Shown one piece after another: positions 1-5,808 of a stretch of DNA of 5,808 bases. A program made the position numbers and the translations under genes. Numbering within the stretch: position 1 is the stretch's first letter; each line of letters starts with the position of its first letter. This stretch comes from an uncultured Candidatus Saccharibacteria bacterium. Lineage in GTDB: Bacteria > Patescibacteriota > Minisyncoccia > UBA6257 > UBA11618. Below the pieces are notes generated by a model. That model ran no database searches. It was not told the origin of the DNA and was given only the letters and a program-made list of their open reading frames with translations. The stretch covers positions 1 to 5,808 of the forward strand of contig CAYSNH010000009.1 of the NCBI GenBank assembly GCA_964432405.1, written 5' to 3'.

Positions 1-183
1 GAGATATACGCAACCTTTTTCATGAGTAGCACACTGAGGCGCAGGGCACTGACCATTATCACCAGCCTCTACAGCAACTTGCTCTTTAGATAAAAAACCG
101 CCAAACAAAAGAACGGCTATTACCAAAGCCAAAATAATCCAAAAGGCTTGCTTATCACTATCGCTGCTTTTATCTCTAGCCAT
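1..183 (-). CDS. Partial CDS (5' end only, runs off left edge): N-terminally membrane-anchored Cys-containing hypothetical protein, paralogue of 268..711
   Basis: The ATG is the complement of 181..183 and the frame stays open for all 61 codons to position 1. Hand translation: MARDKSSDSDKQAFWIILALVIAVLLFGGFLSKEQVAVEAGD then NGQCPAPQCATHEKGCVYL... The first 42 codons are base-identical to those of 268..711. FWIILALVIAVLLFGGFL is a single hydrophobic anchor helix. Confidence 0.6.
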   Translation of the reverse strand, partial: MARDKSSDSDKQAFWIILALVIAVLLFGGFLSKEQVAVEAGDNGQCPAPQCATHEKGCVYL

Positions 184-227
184 ATAGAAAAATTATATCA
201 CTTCTTTATTAAATAAGTTATCCCCAA
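58..227. repeat. Copy 1 of a 170-bp perfect direct repeat (partner 586..755, offset 528 bp)
   Basis: Compared base by base with 586..755 and found identical. It covers 126 nt of coding sequence (codons 1-42 of the minus-strand gene) plus 44 nt upstream of the ATG. Identity stops abruptly at both ends (57 vs 585 and 228 vs 756 differ). Confidence 0.97.
192..200 (-). promoter_or_regulatory. Extended -10 box (TGaTATAAT on minus strand) for the 1..183 gene
   Basis: Minus strand reads gTGaTATAATttttctatATG, a perfect TATAAT with a TGn extension only 8 nt before the ATG. The hexamer at the -35 position (TAACTT) is poor. AT-rich DNA produces -10-like hexamers by chance. Confidence 0.4.
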
Positions 228-246
228 TAGTGATGAGGGATAACTT
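215..246 (-). terminator. Hairpin downstream of 268..711, a possible intrinsic terminator overlapping the next promoter
   Basis: The 10-bp perfect stem AAGTTATCCC (215..224) / GGGATAACTT (237..246) has a 12-nt loop and starts 21 nt after the stop at 268. On the minus-strand RNA it is followed by AUUUAAUAAA, a weak U tract. Confidence 0.4.
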
Positions 247-267
247 TTATGACCTACTTTCATTCTT

Positions 268-711
268 TTAATGACTTACTGGATTACCATATTTATCACA
301 AGTAGGGTAAATATGGTAGTGTTCTGCTTTCTTAAGATAACAAACAATAGGTTTACAACCAGGACCACCAGGATAAATTGTTTCTACAGTCTCATTAGGG
401 TGTTCGTAACTAAGAGCAAGACAAGGGGACATAAATGATGATGATGATGTTTTACCTACTGTACATTGGCTATTCGTTTCTTCTTCAAAATCATCTGTAA
501 GTTGGCTCATTTCTTCCTGTTCACCAAGTTCTTCAGAGAATTCCATTGCCCATAATAGTTTATCTTTATAAGAGTGGTGATCACCATCACCAGCCTCTAC
601 AGCAACTTGCTCTTTAGATAAAAAACCGCCAAACAAAAGAACGGCTATTACCAAAGCCAAAATAATCCAAAAGGCTTGCTTATCACTATCGCTGCTTTTA
701 TCTCTAGCCAT
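268..711 (-). CDS. Hypothetical N-terminally membrane-anchored protein with acidic linker and Cys/His-containing C-terminal domain (147 aa)
   Basis: Complete ORF. It has one hydrophobic helix (residues ~14-31), an acidic stretch (EFSEELGEQEEMSQLTDDFEEETN) and 5 Cys (83, 97, 119, 124, 138). The His/Tyr-rich end is KAEHYHIYPTCDKYGNPVSH. I recognise no family. The gene is co-oriented with its neighbours and has its own promoter-like box. Confidence 0.7.
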   Translation of the reverse strand: MARDKSSDSDKQAFWIILALVIAVLLFGGFLSKEQVAVEAGDGDHHSYKDKLLWAMEFSEELGEQEEMSQLTDDFEEETNSQCTVGKTSSSSFMSPCLALSYEHPNETVETIYPGGPGCKPIVCYLKKAEHYHIYPTCDKYGNPVSH

Positions 712-755
712 ATAGAAAAATTATATCACTTCTTTATTAAATAAGTTATCCCCAA
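586..755. repeat. Copy 2 of the 170-bp perfect direct repeat (partner 58..227)
   Basis: Identical to 58..227. It covers codons 1-42 of 268..711 plus the 44 nt upstream, and ends 1 nt before the stop codon (757..759) of the FAD oxidase gene. Confidence 0.97.
720..728 (-). promoter_or_regulatory. Extended -10 box (TGaTATAAT) for 268..711
   Basis: Same sequence as 192..200 because it lies inside the repeat. It sits 8 nt upstream of the ATG at 711, within the 45-nt gap after the oxidase gene. Confidence 0.4.
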
Positions 756-756
756 G

Positions 757-2346
757 CTACTTCTTCTTTAGGTGTTTGATAGCGTAGCTTAGTTTGCCAT
801 CAACCTTTTTGCCAGGATTGAAAATATTATTAGGATCAAAGATCTTTTTTGTTTCTTTGAATAACTGATACATTTTGCGGCCATACATTTTTTGCATGAA
901 AGGAGTTCTGATTAAGCCATCGTTATGTTCCGCTGACATCGAGCCATCAAATTTGAAGACGAGGTCGTAAACTTTTTTAGATAATTCGGTAATAATCTGG
1001 CCGGATTTTTTGTCAGTTAAATTCATGAGAGGAATAATATGGAAGTTGCCATTACCTACATGACCAGCGATGGTGTAGGTGATATCATATTTATTAAGGA
1101 TTTTCTTTAATTGAGGTAGGAATTGAGGCAGTTTCTCAGGTCGCACTACAATATCATCAATAAAAGGAGCGGTTTGCTTGTCTTTGATCTTTTGACGTAA
1201 CAAGTTAAAGCTTTCTCGTCGGACCGTCCAGTATTTAGCGGTTTCTTTAGCGTTTTTAGTGATTCGAGTGGGAAGTTTGAAGTGAGCGATGTCTTGTTGG
1301 GCAGCAAAGGCCTTCTGATCTACCTCATCTATAGAGTCACCAGTGAATTCAGCTATCAATACTAATTGAGGTAGGCCGCCTTGCAGGACCATTCCTAGTT
1401 CAGGTAGAAATTGAAAAGCAAATTTCCAGAAGAGATAGCGCATCCCTAACTTCAAAGTATTATCATCGTATGATTCAAAACTTTCAGGGTTGTATTTCAA
1501 GATCTCATTAACTATCTTGCCTAAGGGCTTGAGATCGCTAAGAAAAATAACTAACAACTTAGAATGTTTTTTAGGTTTGATAAGGCCAACCTTTATTTCG
1601 GTAATGAGGCCAAGGGTGCCTTGAGAGCCAACAAATAGATTGGCTAGATTAAAGGTCTGACCATCCCAGACATTCCAGAGATAGTAGCCGGAGGAGTTTT
1701 TGGAGACTTGCGGCTTAGCTTTTTCAATTAAAGATTTATTGTTTTTGATTAGGCTGTACACCTTTTTATATACCCGCCCCTCAAAATCTTGCTGTTTTAT
1801 TTTTTTAGCTAATTCAGTTTTATTAAGATCTTTAAAGGTATATTGTTGACCATCGGCCAAGATCACCTTCAGTTCTTGGATGTAGTCTTCGGTCTTGCCA
1901 TAAGCGAGGGTTTTCTCTCCACCAGCATTATTAGAGACCATACCGCCCCAGGCACAGAGGTTTTTGGAGGCGGGATAGGAGGGGAATAATAGGCCTTTTT
2001 TCTTAGCCCTCTTTTCAAAGTCTCGATAATAGACACCAGGCTCCACTACAGCAAAGGTTTTACCAATCTTCTTTATCTTATTAAAATGCTTGAAATCAAC
2101 AACAATTGATTCGGTTAATGGTCCGCCGGTCATATCGCTACCACCCGCTCGACCCGTGAGAGAGAGGTCTTTTTTCTTATTAACAAAAGTAACTAATTTT
2201 TTAAGATCAGAGGAGTTTTTAGGAGAGGCTATTAATTGAGGTTTAACCTCAAATAGACTGGCGTCTCGGCTGTATTGAGTGAGCTTTTGACTACTATCAA
2301 AAACCTCACCTTTAAAAAAGGATTTAAGTTCTTTTTTAAGTTTCAT
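757..2346 (-). CDS. FAD-binding oxidoreductase, GlcD / D-lactate dehydrogenase-like (PCMH-type FAD-binding domain plus FAD-linked oxidase C-terminal domain), 529 aa
   Basis: The N-terminal half matches the FAD_binding_4 pattern: PQLIASPKNSSDLKKLVTFV, GRAGGSDMTGG, VVEPGVYYRDFEKRAKKKGLLFP, NLCAWGGMVSNNAGGEKTLAYGKTEDYIQELKVILADG. The C-terminal half carries the family hallmarks GHVGNGNFH, GSMSAEHNDGLIR and IFDPNNIFNPGKK. Substrate cannot be assigned from sequence. Confidence 0.92.
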   Translation of the reverse strand: MKLKKELKSFFKGEVFDSSQKLTQYSRDASLFEVKPQLIASPKNSSDLKKLVTFVNKKKDLSLTGRAGGSDMTGGPLTESIVVDFKHFNKIKKIGKTFAVVEPGVYYRDFEKRAKKKGLLFPSYPASKNLCAWGGMVSNNAGGEKTLAYGKTEDYIQELKVILADGQQYTFKDLNKTELAKKIKQQDFEGRVYKKVYSLIKNNKSLIEKAKPQVSKNSSGYYLWNVWDGQTFNLANLFVGSQGTLGLITEIKVGLIKPKKHSKLLVIFLSDLKPLGKIVNEILKYNPESFESYDDNTLKLGMRYLFWKFAFQFLPELGMVLQGGLPQLVLIAEFTGDSIDEVDQKAFAAQQDIAHFKLPTRITKNAKETAKYWTVRRESFNLLRQKIKDKQTAPFIDDIVVRPEKLPQFLPQLKKILNKYDITYTIAGHVGNGNFHIIPLMNLTDKKSGQIITELSKKVYDLVFKFDGSMSAEHNDGLIRTPFMQKMYGRKMYQLFKETKKIFDPNNIFNPGKKVDGKLSYAIKHLKKK

Positions 2347-2355
2347 TTGTTATTA

Positions 2356-2364
2356 ATAATAACA
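2356..2364 (-). promoter_or_regulatory. Candidate extended -10 (TGtTATTAT) for the FAD oxidase gene
   Basis: Minus strand reads TAAgtttgTGtTATTATtaataacaaATG, placing the box 9 nt from the ATG at 2346. It lies in the 23-nt gap after the methyltransferase stop, so co-transcription with the methyltransferase is equally possible. Confidence 0.3.
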
Positions 2365-2369
2365 CAAAC

Positions 2370-3092
2370 TTATTCCACAGATTCTTTTTTTATTAAGAAG
2401 TGGAAGGTGCTGGGATGAACTATGCTGATTAGTCGGTAGGCTATGAGGGCTGGTGTGAGAAGTAATTTGTGAGGATACTTGTTAGCAATCTTTTTTTCAC
2501 GACCATCTTTGATTGAAAAGCCAAGGCTTTTTACCAATCTACTGATCTGACCGCGGGTGTAGTAGTGCATTTCTCTTAGATTTTGATGACCAGTGGTCTT
2601 AGACTCATAATTTTTATGTTTCTTAAAAAAAGAAATATATAAGTTACAAAGTGATCGAGGTAACCAGTTAACAAAATAAAGATGAAAATGAGGGTCGTAG
2701 ATGCCAAACCTATTAGGAACACTCATATATGCTCGGGCATTGGGCTTTAATACGCGATGAACTTCTTTGAGGACTGATAAAGGTGACTCTACGTGTTCAA
2801 TAACTTCAGCCATGTTAATAAAATCAAAAGAGTTGTTATCAAAAGGCATCTTTTCTCCTACTCCAGAAATAACTTTGATGGAGACGTTTTCCCGGGCTGC
2901 TTTTTCTTTGGTGATCTGGATATACTCCTCACTTTTTTCTAAACCTATAACATCCAGCCCTTTTTTAGTGGCCTCTATCAAAAAATCGCCTCGACCAGAG
3001 CCAAGATCGAGAAGGGTTATATTATCTAGATGAGGCATGTGTGATCGCAGTTGATCAAAGTGGGTTTTTTTCATGGTTATTATTCGTCCCAT
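2370..3092 (-). CDS. Class I SAM-dependent methyltransferase (Methyltransf_11-like), 240 aa; true start may be the ATG at 3074 (234 aa)
   Basis: SAM motif I is LLDLGSGRGDF, with the acidic loop VIGLEKS. The post-I and motif II/III region is FDFINMAEVIEHVESPLSVLKEVHRVLKPNARAYMSVPN. The ATG at 3092 overlaps a TATAAT box and lies 6 nt from a terminator hairpin. The internal MKKTHFDQL start at 3074 is therefore plausible. Confidence 0.88.
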   Translation of the reverse strand: MGRIITMKKTHFDQLRSHMPHLDNITLLDLGSGRGDFLIEATKKGLDVIGLEKSEEYIQITKEKAARENVSIKVISGVGEKMPFDNNSFDFINMAEVIEHVESPLSVLKEVHRVLKPNARAYMSVPNRFGIYDPHFHLYFVNWLPRSLCNLYISFFKKHKNYESKTTGHQNLREMHYYTRGQISRLVKSLGFSIKDGREKKIANKYPHKLLLTPALIAYRLISIVHPSTFHFLIKKESVE

Positions 3093-3099
3093 TATAACA
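3091..3099 (-). promoter_or_regulatory. Extended -10 box (TGtTATAAT) upstream of the methyltransferase
   Basis: Minus strand reads tttgTGtTATAATgggacgaataataaccATG(3074). The box is 16 nt from the 3074 ATG and shares the 10-mer TTTGTGTTAT with the oxidase upstream region. Confidence 0.4.
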
Positions 3100-3125
3100 C
3101 AAATCCCCCATAATGGGGGATTTGT
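3099..3125 (-). terminator. Intrinsic terminator-like hairpin after the small acidic protein gene
   Basis: The 11-bp stem 3099..3109 / 3115..3125 has a CCCCC/GGGGG core flanked by A-U pairs and a 5-nt loop. It starts 22 nt after the stop at 3148. The minus-strand RNA is ACAAAUCCCCC-AUUAU-GGGGGAUUUGU followed by GUUAUAAU. Confidence 0.55.
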
Positions 3126-3147
3126 TTAGTAGTATAGATGAGAGTGC

Positions 3148-3348
3148 TTATTCAGCAGCTTCATCTTCCATGTCGTCAGAGTCAGCGTCAGCATCGTCAC
3201 CAACAACTGCTTCAACGTCAGCTAGTACTTCGGCTTCTTCAGCAGCAACATCTTCTTCTGCTGGAGCAGCGTCTTCGCCGCCCTTAAACATAAACCAAGC
3301 ACCTAGAACGATGATTACAAGGATAATAATCCAAATCCAAACTTTCAT
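3148..3348 (-). CDS. Small membrane-anchored poly-acidic protein (66 aa)
   Basis: MKVWIWIIILVIIVLGAWFMFK forms an N-terminal hydrophobic helix. The following 44-residue tail has 20 Asp/Glu and no basic residue by hand count. It has the same architecture as the two anchored proteins at the left end. A terminator hairpin sits downstream on this strand. I chose it over the antisense ORF 3113..3355. Confidence 0.6.
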   Translation of the reverse strand: MKVWIWIIILVIIVLGAWFMFKGGEDAAPAEEDVAAEEAEVLADVEAVVGDDADADSDDMEDEAAE

Positions 3349-3414
3349 GATGTAAATTCAGTTAAAAATATATTGGAAACAAGACCGACCTTTTTCTTTC
3401 CTGTTTTATTCAAA

Positions 3415-3441
3415 ATTAAAGCATTGGAGTTTAATTGTCAA
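3415..3441 (-). promoter_or_regulatory. Candidate sigma-70 promoter for the small acidic protein gene
   Basis: Minus strand has TTGACA (3441..3436), a 15-nt spacer ending in TGc, then TTTAAT (3420..3415). The spacer is shorter than optimal. This would give a 5' UTR of about 60 nt. Confidence 0.3.
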
Positions 3442-3468
3442 ATGGAAAGGGTGGGATAATCAATAAAT

Positions 3469-3497
3469 TTGACTAAGGATTAATTTAATGTCATAGT
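3469..3497 (+). promoter_or_regulatory. Candidate sigma-70 promoter for the ECF sigma operon
   Basis: TTGACT (3469..3474) is followed by a 17-nt spacer ending in TGt, then CATAGT (3492..3497). The candidate at 5736..5764 has the same layout and the same TGTCATA core. The -10 lacks the first T. Confidence 0.35.
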
Positions 3498-3537
3498 ATG
3501 CGGAAAGTGTAAGAAATTAGATTCTTCAACGTCTTAT

Positions 3538-4041
3538 ATGGAGCAACTAGATAAATCACAACAATTTTTAGCTGATTACGATAGTTTTTCGGAAGTGATC
3601 TTTCGGCATTGCTTTTTTCGTGTTTCTGATAGAGAAACAGCGAGAGATTTAATGCAGGATACCTTTGTTAAGGCCTGGAAGCAGGTTGTAGCGGGGGCGG
3701 AAATCAAGAATATGAGAGCTTTTCTATATAAAGTTGCTAACAACCTCATTATTGATGAGTATCGGAAGAAAAAGGCCTATTCCCTTGATCAGATGCAAGA
3801 AGCTGGTTTTGAACTAGCTAGTCAGGATCATTTAAAGATAGAAAAGATAGTTGAGGGTCGAGAGGCGTTAAAAGTGCTTGATCAGCTTGATGACAAGTAT
3901 AAAGAGGTTATTGTTATGAGATATATAGACGATCTTTCTCCTCAGGAGATTGCTGAGATAGTAGGAGAGAGTGAGAATCTGGTATCGGTTCGTATTCATC
4001 GTGGTTTGGTGCGCTTAAGAGAGTTAGTTAATAAAGAATAA
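3538..4041 (+). CDS. ECF-type (group 4) RNA polymerase sigma-70 family factor, 167 aa
   Basis: Region 2 is FRHCFFRVSDRETARDLMQDTFVKAWKQV ... FLYKVANNLIIDEYRKK. The region 4 helix-turn-helix is VIVMRYIDDLSPQEIAEIVGESENLVSVRIHRGLVRLRE. The size and the absence of regions 1 and 3 are typical of ECF sigmas. Confidence 0.92.
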   Translation: MEQLDKSQQFLADYDSFSEVIFRHCFFRVSDRETARDLMQDTFVKAWKQVVAGAEIKNMRAFLYKVANNLIIDEYRKKKAYSLDQMQEAGFELASQDHLKIEKIVEGREALKVLDQLDDKYKEVIVMRYIDDLSPQEIAEIVGESENLVSVRIHRGLVRLRELVNKE

Positions 4042-4043
4042 GT

Positions 4044-4952
4044 ATGGATAAAGAACTAAAAGACATTATTAATAAAGCAAAAGAGGTGAGATTGAATGAA
4101 GAGGACAAGTCCCAAGTAAGGGAGAATTTAGTTACTTTCATGAATAAAGATTTGGGGGATGTAAGAAATGAGGAGTTAGTACGTCATAATACTTGGCACC
4201 CTAAAATTTGGTCCGGTTTCGCTCGAGTTCCAGCCGCAGCTGTTCTCTCTGTCTTCTTAATGACAGGAGTCTCATTAGCTGCTGAAGGTTCTCTACCCGG
4301 CGACACTCTCTATCCATTGAAGGTCAATATCAATGAAGAAATTCAGAGTTTAATGGCTTTCTCTCCTGAATCTAAAGCGAAGTTTGAAATTAAGCGCGCC
4401 GAACGTCGTTTAGATGAGGTAGAAAGATTAGCTCTACATAATAAATTAGAGGCCCATTGGAAAGATAGTTTAGATGGTCGTTTAGAGAGACAGATCGAGC
4501 GAGCGAGTAAGCGTATTGCAATGCTAGAAGAAAAAGGCGAATTGCAAAAAGCAGCTCAGATTAATAATCGCTTGGAAGTAGTTCTTTCTGTTCATGATCA
4601 GATCCTAACTGATTTGGACAAAAAGAAGATTACCGCCAAGAAGATTAAAGAAAAAGTTAAGAAGGTAGCTGCTCAACGTCAGATTCTAGAAAAGAAGTTG
4701 TTGACTGGTAAGGTGATTGATAAATTGATCGAGGAGAAAGATTTAGTGGAAAAGAAGATTACTCCTAAAGATATTAAAGTTATCCAAAAACAACAATTAA
4801 AACGGCAAGAAGAAAAGAAAGCTTACATCGCACTTCAAAAAGCTAAAAGAGCTGTTGAGAAAAAGGTTTTATTAAAGAAGACCAATCAACGCCTAAAGAG
4901 CTTCCAATCAAAAACAAAACCAACCAAATTGAGGGATTCCGTTAGTCGTTAA
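4044..4952 (+). CDS. Putative single-pass anti-sigma factor (non-zinc type) with helical extracytoplasmic domain and lysine-rich C-terminal tail, 302 aa
   Basis: The start is 2 nt after the sigma stop, which suggests translational coupling. A ~60-aa N-terminal soluble segment has no HxxxCxxC motif. One TM helix follows (VPAAAVLSVFLMTGVSLAA, residues ~62-80). Next comes GSLPGDTLYPLKVNINEEI, which from memory resembles the start of DUF5667-type domains found next to sigma factors. The rest is helical or coiled-coil. The anti-sigma role is inferred from position and topology. Confidence 0.65.
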   Translation: MDKELKDIINKAKEVRLNEEDKSQVRENLVTFMNKDLGDVRNEELVRHNTWHPKIWSGFARVPAAAVLSVFLMTGVSLAAEGSLPGDTLYPLKVNINEEIQSLMAFSPESKAKFEIKRAERRLDEVERLALHNKLEAHWKDSLDGRLERQIERASKRIAMLEEKGELQKAAQINNRLEVVLSVHDQILTDLDKKKITAKKIKEKVKKVAAQRQILEKKLLTGKVIDKLIEEKDLVEKKITPKDIKVIQKQQLKRQEEKKAYIALQKAKRAVEKKVLLKKTNQRLKSFQSKTKPTKLRDSVSR

Positions 4953-4972
4953 TAATCAATTTATTTTTAACT

Positions 4973-5680
4973 ATGAAACGTTTACTTCCCCTATTACTAT
5001 TATTTAGCTTCGTGGTTCCCGCTTCCTTCGCTAATGCTCAAACTTTAGCAGAGCCACAGCTATTAGACGCAGATCAAGTACAGGTAAAGCCTGTCGCAAG
5101 AAAACTTAAAGCTTCCTTCTTATCACGTTATGCACCAAACAGAAACCTACGAGTAGCAATTACTTCTCCTAATGGTGGTGAAACTTGGAAGGCAGGTAGT
5201 AAAGAAACTATCACTTGGGATTACAAATACGCTAAAGTCCCTACCATTGCTCAACATGTGGACGTTAAAGCCTCTCTCTTCTTAATTCATGGCCGAAGAG
5301 GTAGTCTTTCTCGAAGACACATTGCTGATGTTAAATTAGCTGATCGTAAGTACACTTGGGCAGTGCCTGCAGATGTTAGAAGCAGCAAAGGTTACCGAGT
5401 GCTAATCGTTGTTAATGGTAGCAAATGTAAAGTTACCACAAGCTCTGACAAGAGATGTCAGGCATCTGAGGTTCGTGATGCTAGTAACCGATCCTTCAAG
5501 ATTATTGGCAAGGACGGCGTTATTAAGCCAATGCCAAAACCAAAGCCAAAGCCAATGCCAAAGCCAATGCCGCCTAAAAGTGCAGAAGCTATCAAGAAGA
5601 GAATCGACCTATTGCAATCTTTTGTAGATAGAATAGAAGCTCGTATCACTCAACTAAGAGAGATGTTGGCTAATCTATAA
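4973..5680 (+). CDS. Secreted protein: signal peptide, beta-sandwich domain (bacterial Kre9/KNH-like 'Ser-Thr-rich GPI-anchored family' type), Pro-Lys linker and C-terminal amphipathic helix, 235 aa
   Basis: The Sec signal peptide is MKRLLPLLLLFSFVVPASFANA, with an AxA cleavage site before QT and no lipobox Cys. The domain pattern is VAITSPNGGETWKAGSKETITW ... RKYTWAVPADVRSSKGYRVLIV ... C..10..C ... DASNRSFKI. KPMPKPKPKPMPKPMPPK follows, then the helix SAEAIKKRIDLLQSFVDRIEARITQLREMLANL. The domain name is recalled from memory, not searched. Confidence 0.85.
   Translation: MKRLLPLLLLFSFVVPASFANAQTLAEPQLLDADQVQVKPVARKLKASFLSRYAPNRNLRVAITSPNGGETWKAGSKETITWDYKYAKVPTIAQHVDVKASLFLIHGRRGSLSRRHIADVKLADRKYTWAVPADVRSSKGYRVLIVVNGSKCKVTTSSDKRCQASEVRDASNRSFKIIGKDGVIKPMPKPKPKPMPKPMPPKSAEAIKKRIDLLQSFVDRIEARITQLREMLANL
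5525..5572 (+). repeat. Four tandem 12-bp units inside the CDS, encoding (KPMP)(KPKP)(KPMP)(KPMP)
   Basis: The units are aagccaatgcca / aaaccaaagcca / aagccaatgcca / aagccaatgccg. Units 1 and 3 are identical and unit 4 differs by 1 nt. All are in frame with 4973..5680. Confidence 0.9.
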
Positions 5681-5703
5681 AGATTGATACAATATAAAGG
5701 AAT

Positions 5704-5734
5704 CTCCCAGAGTGAGGCTGGGAGTTCTTTTTTT
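5704..5734 (+). terminator. Rho-independent terminator of the sigma / anti-sigma / secreted protein operon
   Basis: The 7-bp GC-rich stem CTCCCAG (5704..5710) / CTGGGAG (5718..5724) has a 7-nt loop. It is followed immediately by TTCTTTTTTT (5725..5734), 24 nt after the stop codon. Confidence 0.85.
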
Positions 5735-5735
5735 A

Positions 5736-5764
5736 TTGACAAACATATTAAGATGTGTCATATT
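5736..5764 (+). promoter_or_regulatory. Candidate sigma-70 promoter for a downstream feature beyond the window
   Basis: A consensus TTGACA (5736..5741) is followed by a 17-nt spacer ending in TGt, then CATATT (5759..5764), directly after the terminator. No credible ORF starts in the remaining 44 nt. Confidence 0.45.
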
Positions 5765-5808
5765 GCCCCACAGTACAGATACAAATCAACCTCAATGGTT
5801 TTTTAAAA

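Follow-up and report, generated by a model that had tools for sequence, protein, structure and literature searches.

A predicted promoter-and-export head shared by unrelated payload genes in a variable island of a marine Patescibacterium

Contig CAYSNH010000009.1 of assembly GCA_964432405.1, from an uncultured Candidatus Saccharibacteria bacterium, begins with two tandem genes, B and A, which raise a simple question: why should neighboring genes agree at every base of a 170-nt 5' module, predicted promoter included, and then encode unrelated sequences? The window analyzed here is the whole 5,808-nt stretch (positions 1 to 5,808, forward strand), which is also the entire contig record, and both genes lie on its minus strand. 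Window positions 58-227 and 586-755 share 170/170 bases in direct orientation with an offset of 528 nt, and the exact match is not extendable by 1 base on either side (leftwards beyond the repeat, the next 8 bases agree 5/8; past 227/755 the flanks are unrelated). In 5.8 kb of DNA with 38% G+C, an exact repeat of 170 nt does not arise by chance. A previous sequence-only reading had described the repeat as base-perfect, with each copy holding 44 nt 5' of the ATG, including TGATATAAT, and exactly 42 codons (MARDKSSDSDKQAFWIILALVIAVLLFGGFLSKEQVAVEAGD), and had counted 5 Cys in A and 3 Cys in the 19 residues of the visible part of B; all of these statements are borne out. We interpret the repeat, here termed the head, as the constant part of a constant-head, variable-payload family of exported proteins that is reshuffled by recombination between heads, and we put the probability of this reading at about 0.7. 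Feature coordinates are collected in Table 1.

Table 1. Positions of the two heads, their parts, and the adjoining features in the window
Feature	Position	Strand	Basis or remark
Gene B, first 61 codons, start at 183, cut by the left end of the contig	1..183	minus	Translation
Head copy 1 (gene B): 44 nt upstream/promoter and codons 1-42	58..227	minus	Same as 586-755 at 170/170
VEA (codons 38-40), AxA-like possible signal-peptidase site, 2 codons before the repeat end	64..72	minus	Counterpart in A at 592-600
Hydrophobic helix WIILALVIAVLLFGGFL (residues 15-31), gene B	91..141	minus	Sequence; counterpart in A at 619-669
Predicted extended -10 promoter TGaTATAAT, gene B	192..200	minus	Direct reading; ends 8 nt before the ATG (181-183)
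Palindrome GTTATCCC-N12-GGGATAAC	217..244	no strand	Arm 217-225 inside head copy 1; arm 237-244 outside the repeat
Recombination scar: 27 nt shared with the beginning of the following island gene (anchor-2, MKVGHK...), overlapping the stop codon of A	245..272	minus	Matches L016 ~5704-5730 and L001 ~5490-5516
Gene A, 147 aa: head, acidic linker, and 5-Cys C-terminal domain (FMSPC...CKPIVC...YPTC...GNPV)	268..711	minus	Open reading frame (ORF)
Head copy 2 (gene A), abutting the FAD-oxidase stop codon	586..755	minus	Multi-locus alignment
Predicted extended -10 promoter TGaTATAAT, gene A	720..728	minus	As in copy 1; ATG at 709-711
FAD-binding oxidase, 529 aa, conserved left border of the variable island	757..2346	minus	Pfam FAD_binding_4 and FAD-oxidase_C

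Head architecture and range of payloads

Read on the minus strand, the head consists of TTGGGGATAAC, 19 nt, TGATATAAT, 8 nt (TTTTCTAT), the ATG, and 42 codons. The block AAGTGATATAATTTTTCTATATGGCTA is invariant in 10/10 aligned family copies, and the promoter call is based on the invariant TGnTATAAT block. Neither a -35 hexamer nor a Shine-Dalgarno sequence is present in the head, and a consensus promoter scan does not list the head promoter because the -35 hexamer is lacking; the short distance between the -10 element and the ATG suggests a leaderless or near-leaderless mRNA start. The 42 codons specify a 14-residue charged N terminus, a 17-residue hydrophobic stretch, and SKEQVAVEA-GD, and AlphaFold models of A and B place a helix at residues 8-27/28 with moderate values of the predicted local distance difference test (pLDDT). 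V38, E39, and A40 are invariant among 8 aligned heads, VEA is placed 7-9 residues past the 17-residue hydrophobic stretch, and the net charge of the C-flank is negative. Payload divergence starts at residues 41-43, 2-3 residues past VEA, so the repeat end falls almost exactly at a possible AxA-type site. To call the 42-codon segment a "membrane anchor" is an interpretation; judged from its sequence, it could equally be a cleavable signal peptide (VEA followed by G, residues 38-41). The head is thereby predicted to be a self-contained expression-and-export unit, which would drive expression and Sec-dependent export and place the payload outside the cytoplasm, where it would be disulfide folded and either tethered or, if cleaved, released.

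Heads of this type, termed anchor-1, were defined by an alignable N-terminal region of 40-42 residues with 26 invariant positions (MAR/KxK...KQxFW[IV][IV]LAL[VI]IAVLLFGGFL[ST]KE...VEA) and by the upstream arrangement GGGGATAAC-N19-TGATATAAT-N8-ATG; both window genes match this definition exactly. In what follows, related loci are designated L and proteins P. The head is carried by P0001-P0008 and P0016-P0020. The alignment of 8 heads has a mean column identity of 88%, and the nucleotide alignment took in 10 copies; in the multi-locus alignment, conservation sets in at TGGGGATAAC, immediately past the FAD-oxidase stop codon. Nucleotide identity among heads is 76-100% over the 126 coding bases and 81-100% over the 170-nt module, and payload identity is ~15-30% (background) unless the payload types match. 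The head is found on at least seven payload architectures, among them several unrelated cysteine-rich domains, in assemblies of several marine studies. All samples with the family are marine, a small number of assemblies to date, and the family is very rare, with only 11 proteins at E <= 1e-3 among 1.84 billion representatives. The closest genome is the Patescibacteria metagenome-assembled genome UBA11618, whose FAD-oxidase protein is 97% identical.

With the 42-aa head alignment as the query, no related loci were confirmed in genome or metagenome contigs, short patterns rich in transmembrane residues being unspecific; related loci were obtained instead with the FAD-oxidase protein as the query. 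The head had 0 matches in the viral contigs of IMG/VR and thus gives no indication of having come from a phage; a phage cassette was rejected. In the literature on cysteine-rich secreted proteins of Patescibacteria, on hypervariable surface proteins of the candidate phyla radiation (CPR), and on Heavy_Cys (PF27854), no description of the head family was found; the nearest paper concerns a hypervariable PTD-repeat gene in a Gracilibacterium, which is a different phenomenon (PMC6851277).

Gene B is cut by the contig end, and its full-length form (P0004/P0009, 118 aa; head 100% identical, first 19 payload residues the same) was found by database search. Recovery of the complete left gene settles the check for homologous C termini that the sequence-only reading had set: the payloads of A and full-length B show no homology (BLASTP E = 0.34). 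B is laid out as the head, a 7-Cys domain (CPAPQC...GC...GC...PC...LC...WC), of which 6 Cys are kept in four aligned B-type proteins, and a D/G/P-rich tail ending in F. B-type payloads are those of P0004-7, some of which have an additional Cys domain at the N or C terminus. A-type payloads are those of P0001-3, and relatives of A are limited to P0002 (64% identity) and P0003 (51%); an exhaustive search of the 1.84 billion representatives with a hidden Markov model of the A-type alignment revealed no payload relatives past these three, and an 845-aa repeat protein at E = 1e-4 in that profile search was judged spurious. Payloads A and B have no Pfam or NCBIfam match (a Pfam Spo12 match of P0004, E = 0.083, is spurious). 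A Foldseek search of the A model against the PDB returned nothing below E = 0.5, and hence no fold was assigned.

Among the relatives, P0019 contains a bona fide WAP four-disulfide core (L021 4319-4783; Pfam E = 2.5e-10, 40.9 bits against a cut-off of 20.8), and P0008 contains a Kazal-like VCGxxGxTYxNxC stretch (Pfam E = 0.003, below the cut-off); P0017, P0018, and P0020 are further head-bearing proteins. A and B match neither of these inhibitor domains, with no above-threshold Pfam match to them in either payload and none at all for P0001, and the function is not transferable. A Kazal-like stretch (YKPVCCDGKKYGNKC) was seen by eye in a 256-aa protein of L004 with a different head (anchor-2, see below), and P0020 (L022 383-1186) has a precomputed match to PF27854, Heavy_Cys_CGP, that was not reproduced with the Pfam scan used here. 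Most payloads (P0004, P0005-P0008, P0017-P0020; L016 6800-7020) have long low-complexity G/D/P/K/N tails made up of GDKP, GDNGN, or GGEPGP repeats. The tails usually end with an aromatic residue among the last residues (...GNGF, ...GGFDM, ...GGFGM, ...NWY), which may be a sorting or wall-association signal, and they also produce assembly gaps, such as the run of N in L003 at ~12100-12260.

Variable island, 528-nt unit, and recombination between heads

The nucleotide identity of the FAD-oxidase gene is 95-100% in L001-L007 and L015-L017, and its NCBIfam matches to YdiJ/GlcD are all below the cut-off. In all loci that include this gene, a head-bearing gene lies directly next to it: B in L001, L002, and L015-L017; an A-type gene in L005; P0005 in L003; P0006 in L006 and L007; and the WAP protein P0019 in L021. 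More distant relatives (L009-L014, FAD-oxidase 48-57% identical) have no such island. Downstream in the island there are two other head types, anchor-2 (MKxGxxGYSxNxNLFWTVF...QPLA) and anchor-3 (...NSFWTIF...AEA), recorded at L016 5713-6300 and 6293-7024, L003 10695-12262, L004 1369-2139, L005 502-1386, and L007 1187-3007. The 5' 132 nt of the anchor-2 genes are 79-100% identical, and their payloads are non-homologous; anchor-3 genes bear a related N-terminal motif, and N(K/Q)xxFW is common to all three heads, suggesting a single ancient origin. In some genomes, another anchor-1 gene lies ~2 kb away. We regard this picture of the family and its island as very probably right.

Five other assemblies (L001, L002, L015, L016, and L017) correspond to the window minus exactly the 528-nt unit and are 99.83-100% identical to it over 5,223 nt, with a copy 1 module that is 100% identical in each. 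When the window is reverse-complemented and aligned to L016, a 27-kb contig of the Joint Genome Institute (JGI), there are 0 mismatches in the 5,223-nt stretch and again 0 in the final 227 nt, and L016 differs solely by having one head and no payload A; the other four have 1 (L017), 1 (L002), 4 (L001), and 9 (L015) mismatches. Loss of the 528-nt unit by recombination between the repeats had been predicted from the window alone, and these assemblies represent the matching haplotype. The B-only form is certainly real: five assemblies, built by three pipelines from at least four samples, contain it, and one of them, a Logan contig, reads through the head unbroken. The 528-nt difference is exactly the product of a head-to-head crossover, or the substrate before the insertion of "payload A + spacer + head." The event may have been a deletion or an insertion, with the one or the other form ancestral, and RecA may have been involved.

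The spacer between the two genes records a different type of join. The stop codon of A is separated from the next head by 40 nt. Here, the 27 nt of ATTAAAAGAATGAAAGTAGGTCATAAA (245/246-272) are identical to part of an anchor-2 gene, namely the ribosome-proximal region and six opening codons (MKVGHK) of the one located after B in L001 and L016. Past this point, the scar changes to AGTTATCCCTCATCACTA, an 18-mer that no compared locus contains, and then to the head. Microhomology (GTTATyCyTCA) is present at the join, between GGTTATTCTTCA (anchor-2) and GTTATCCCTCA (palindrome arm). In L004, L005, and L018, a full anchor-2 gene lies 4 nt downstream of the A-type gene; the window is collinear with this "A-first" order in its left part and with "palindrome arm + head + B" in its right part. 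The spacer after A is an illegitimate-recombination scar, and this junction duplicates no part of the B-only haplotype. Three explanations had been offered for the repeat before. A simple, very recent partial duplication is ruled out because the spacer holds a 27-nt piece of the start of a third gene, whereas a constant-anchor/variable-ectodomain cassette family with gene conversion is upheld, as the head sits on unrelated payloads and groups by genome.

The 18-mer and the first bases of the head together form the palindrome. Its exact pattern is found in L003 (2 copies), L006, L007 (2 copies), and L018, and a variant with C as the first base lies 5' of the A-type gene in L004; these copies sit 5' of non-first anchor-1 genes and of anchor-2 genes, usually just past a strong terminator, ACAGCCCTTCGGGGCTGTTTT. 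Heads adjacent to the FAD-oxidase gene, copy 2 included, have the inner arm only, which accounts for the start point of the repeat. As RNA, the palindrome has a folding energy of -14.8 kcal/mol (z = -2.2), and it could function as a weak terminator, as an operator, or in both ways. The anchor-2 remnant also gives a 21-codon ORF (MKVGHKSYPSSLLGITYLIKK and a stop codon), which runs from 245-263 (minus strand) into 198-200 and uses the TGA of the extended -10 element of B as its stop; the ORF is probably meaningless, and translation through the palindrome could affect the promoter region of B.

Comparison of the heads points to exchange between them. The head of A in the window is 100% identical to that of B and 92-95% identical to A-type heads elsewhere, and it shares the ending VEAGD with the B-type genes. 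In every other A-type gene the ending is VEASH, which indicates that the 5' end of A is mosaic. In L007, two heads that lie 2.6 kb apart on unrelated payloads are 98% identical to each other and 86-92% identical to the L003 heads. In two of three genomes, the heads cluster by genome and not by payload. We propose that the members of a multigene family have the 170-nt repeat as their common head, composed of the inner palindrome arm, the extended -10 element, and 42 export codons, and that it would export an interchangeable small payload of the disulfide type (A, B, WAP-like, Kazal-like, and others). Recent and recurrent recombination between heads, by gene conversion or crossover and probably homologous in mechanism, would keep the heads identical, rather than unusual selection on each base, and a crossover between two heads would delete the 528-nt unit or, conversely, insert it.

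Several observations weigh against this proposal. The two heads of L003 are just 82% identical, so homogenization would be episodic and not constant. Between genomes, the head is ~92-93% identical and the FAD-oxidase gene 97%; the head is thus less conserved than its neighbor, and the identity within the window would therefore reflect recent exchange and not extreme constraint. The structure models are of low confidence (pLDDT of 51.1 for A and 55.0 for B). The gene A allele is known from one assembly only (cluster size 1), with the tandem resting on one 5.8-kb contig, and the strain mixture implied by a single-nucleotide polymorphism (SNP) at the left end of this contig is a condition for repeat-mediated mis-joins.

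The divergent heads of L003, which have not been homogenized, would also fit a one-off neutral rearrangement, that is, a single illegitimate event whose identical heads signify young age, with no ongoing exchange and with heads that are not handles for recombination. The scar after A does represent one illegitimate join, and a single tandem with directly adjacent heads was found. However, five single-gene variants and the A+B tandem occupy the slot after the FAD-oxidase gene, which is itself ~95-100% identical at the nucleotide level where compared; exactly one head-to-head unit separates the B-only haplotype from the window; unrelated payloads with near-identical heads are seen again in L007; and the anchor-2 genes exhibit the same pattern. 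A one-off event is hence improbable, and recurrent recombination between heads remains the preferred reading.

Restriction of the A allele to one contig could also mean that the contig is an assembly chimera, in which a B-only strain and "head-A-spacer-head" from another strain or locus were mis-threaded because the head exceeds the assembler k-mer. Gene A gave no exact look-up record beyond the window contig, its last 33 nt had 0 exact matches in JGI contigs, and the five other assemblies, from three pipelines, read from the FAD-oxidase gene through the head into B. The left end of the window lies 57 nt past the head, one base before a G/A SNP in B (L001 5281, L016 5495), where the alleles are GAT (D62) in L001 and L002 and AAT (N62) in L015, L016, and L017; two or more strains must therefore have been present in the source sample, and the contig ends represent branch points of the assembly graph. 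In addition, contigs from other samples (L018 1-45, L019 1-24, L020 1-38) start 23-44 nt 5' of the A-type ATG, in the head promoter region, indicating that the head interrupts assemblies in those samples as well, which is what a multi-copy or variable element would be expected to do. On the other hand, the join from A through the spacer to the head has the unique 18-mer and a truncated anchor-2 start of no other locus. This junction must be real DNA, and A therefore precedes another head-bearing gene wherever it is located. Both flanks are 100% identical to L016, which makes the assembled placement the simplest one, and the order FAD-oxidase, head, A-type payload is seen independently in L005. 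Furthermore, an assembler that breaks at a single SNP should also break at an unresolved repeat with two entries and two exits, unless reads or pairs had resolved it. A chimera appears unlikely on balance, and the arrangement is probably correct as assembled.

Recombination between heads might go further. In a more tentative and rather doubtful extension, the heads would be docking sites of a homologous-recombination cassette system: units of head plus payload, acquired by uptake from a related strain or as a small circle excised by head-to-head crossover, would integrate at any head and be expressed at once from their own leaderless promoter, and the window haplotype would be a captured intermediate. 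If so, this haplotype would be resolvable to B-only via the 170-nt heads and to A-only via the 27-nt anchor-2 repeats.

Neighboring genes of the window

The methyltransferase gene to the right of the FAD-oxidase gene occupies 2370-3092 on the minus strand; L003, L006, and L008 lack it entirely, and it does not appear in the gene calls of L021. Nucleotide identity to the first three of these loci changes from ~84-86% on its right, the sigma/anti-sigma/Kre9 side, to ~96-97% on its left, the FAD-oxidase side; window positions 2369-3093 are a second indel and recombination breakpoint adjoining the island. A 66-aa ORF at 3148-3348 (minus strand) combines an N-terminal membrane helix with a very acidic tail (MKVWIWIIILVIIVLGAWF...DDMEDEAAE) and is kept in all related loci at 62-66 aa. 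It is followed by a perfect hairpin (AAATCCCCCATAATGGGGGATTT) at ~3097-3126, which is probably its terminator. On the plus strand, a conserved trio at 3538-5680 adjoins the island in every related locus and consists of an extracytoplasmic function (ECF)-type sigma factor (167 aa), a DUF5667 protein (302 aa) that is possibly an anti-sigma factor, and a secreted Kre9_KNH-domain protein with a (K/M)P repeat (5525-5571). This trio may have a regulatory connection to the island promoters or the palindrome. An Rfam scan found no RNA family anywhere in the window. At the right end, the window (5808), L001 (1), and L002 (1) stop within 25 nt of one point (L016 214), and L015-L017 continue into a pentapeptide-repeat gene; the shared break point is presumably strain-variable or repeated sequence.

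Relation to known systems and biological meaning

The concept of a conserved head on variable payloads is already known, and the present family belongs to none of the systems with which it was compared. Variable surface lipoproteins of Mycoplasma include the vlp and vsa families. In the vpma family of M. agalactiae and the vsp family of M. bovis, the 5' untranslated region (UTR) and the signal-peptide region are conserved, while the remaining coding sequence has no significant homology, and the lipobox can be exemplified by AAKC (PMC2268961). The likeness lies in the architecture only: a clustered multigene family in a small-genome, host-dependent bacterium, a conserved 5' UTR plus signal peptide, and payloads often with low-complexity repeats. 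The heads described here differ in having no lipobox, with no Cys in residues 1-42 of any head, no homopolymer tract between the palindrome arm and the -10 box, and no sequence homology to the Mycoplasma families. Each head gene has its own promoter instead of one shared expression site, and the variation consists of gain, loss, or replacement between strains, not of demonstrated high-frequency switching.

Programmed variation would imply either a recombinase of the Mycoplasma vsa/vpma type that switches one expression site or a diversity-generating retroelement. CPR genomes are rich in such retroelements. A conserved 5' region with a variable remainder indeed resembles vpma and vsp (PMC2268961). 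Yet the repeats are direct and not inverted, each family gene carries its own complete promoter, and no recombinase, integrase, or reverse-transcriptase domain was found among the called genes within ~8-10 kb on either side in L001, L003, L015, and L016. Moreover, the repeats are identical, with no adenine-specific mismatches, and the variable part is unrelated sequence and not a point-mutated one. We consider programmed variation highly improbable. As specific candidates, an inversion switch was rejected because of the direct repeats, the separate promoters, and the lack of a recombinase Pfam domain in those flanks, and a retroelement target was rejected because the flank gene lists contain no reverse-transcriptase domain and the repeats, 170/170 identical, lie at the 5' end and not at the variable end.

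In phytoplasmas, the sequence-variable mosaic (SVM) signal (PF12113) of effectors such as SAP11 and SAP54 is a conserved N-terminal signal on otherwise unrelated small secreted proteins (PMC8026896). The resemblance is that of a conserved N-terminal signal sequence in a reduced-genome bacterium, but conservation of the heads reaches the promoter and the nucleotide level. PF12113 has no match in A, B, or the other heads; the only trace (E = 0.27, 11.7 bits against a cut-off of 22.4) is in a 166-aa island protein of L004. Phytoplasma SVM regions are tied to potential mobile units. For the present family, the checks for mobile elements comprised the viral-contig scan for the head and the search for recombinase, integrase, and reverse-transcriptase domains in the flanks.

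Conotoxin and other venom superfamilies likewise have a conserved signal followed by hypervariable cysteine-rich peptides that diverge near the processing site. They differ in being eukaryotic, with an intron/exon organization and a propeptide, and in varying by accelerated substitution and duplication, not by head-to-head recombination. Integrons are similar in their small, promoter-proximal units of one payload each, and the 528-nt unit is formally cassette-like and could excise as a one-head circle. However, there is no IntI integrase domain in the flanks and there are no attI/attC sites; the "attachment site" here is 170 nt of ordinary homology made up of promoter and coding sequence. An integron array was rejected since direct repeats of 170 nt delimit the unit, the palindrome (217-244) occurs just once per non-first gene, and the flanks contain no integrase.

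For practical use, the 170-nt head is a probe for family members in metagenomes, and the 528-nt indel is a marker for recombination in a natural population. Assemblers and annotators should be aware that such heads break or mis-thread contigs. CPR bacteria and Patescibacteria are thought to be cell-attached or cell-dependent, and little is known of their exposed or secreted molecules. Here, an island of small, presumably exported cysteine-rich proteins varies among strains that are 99.8-100% identical over 5.2 kb, and shared heads can explain this turnover. The WAP and Kazal-like members suggest protease inhibition as a function; the payloads would act outside the cell, possibly in protease inhibition or in interaction with a host or partner under diversifying pressure. 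The quick replacement of payloads among near-identical strains points to such pressure from partners, predators, or phages. If the heads do serve as docking sites, a near-clonal population would have at its disposal rapidly exchangeable, eukaryote-like disulfide-rich exoproteins (WAP, Kazal-like, and novel folds) against hosts, grazers, and phages.

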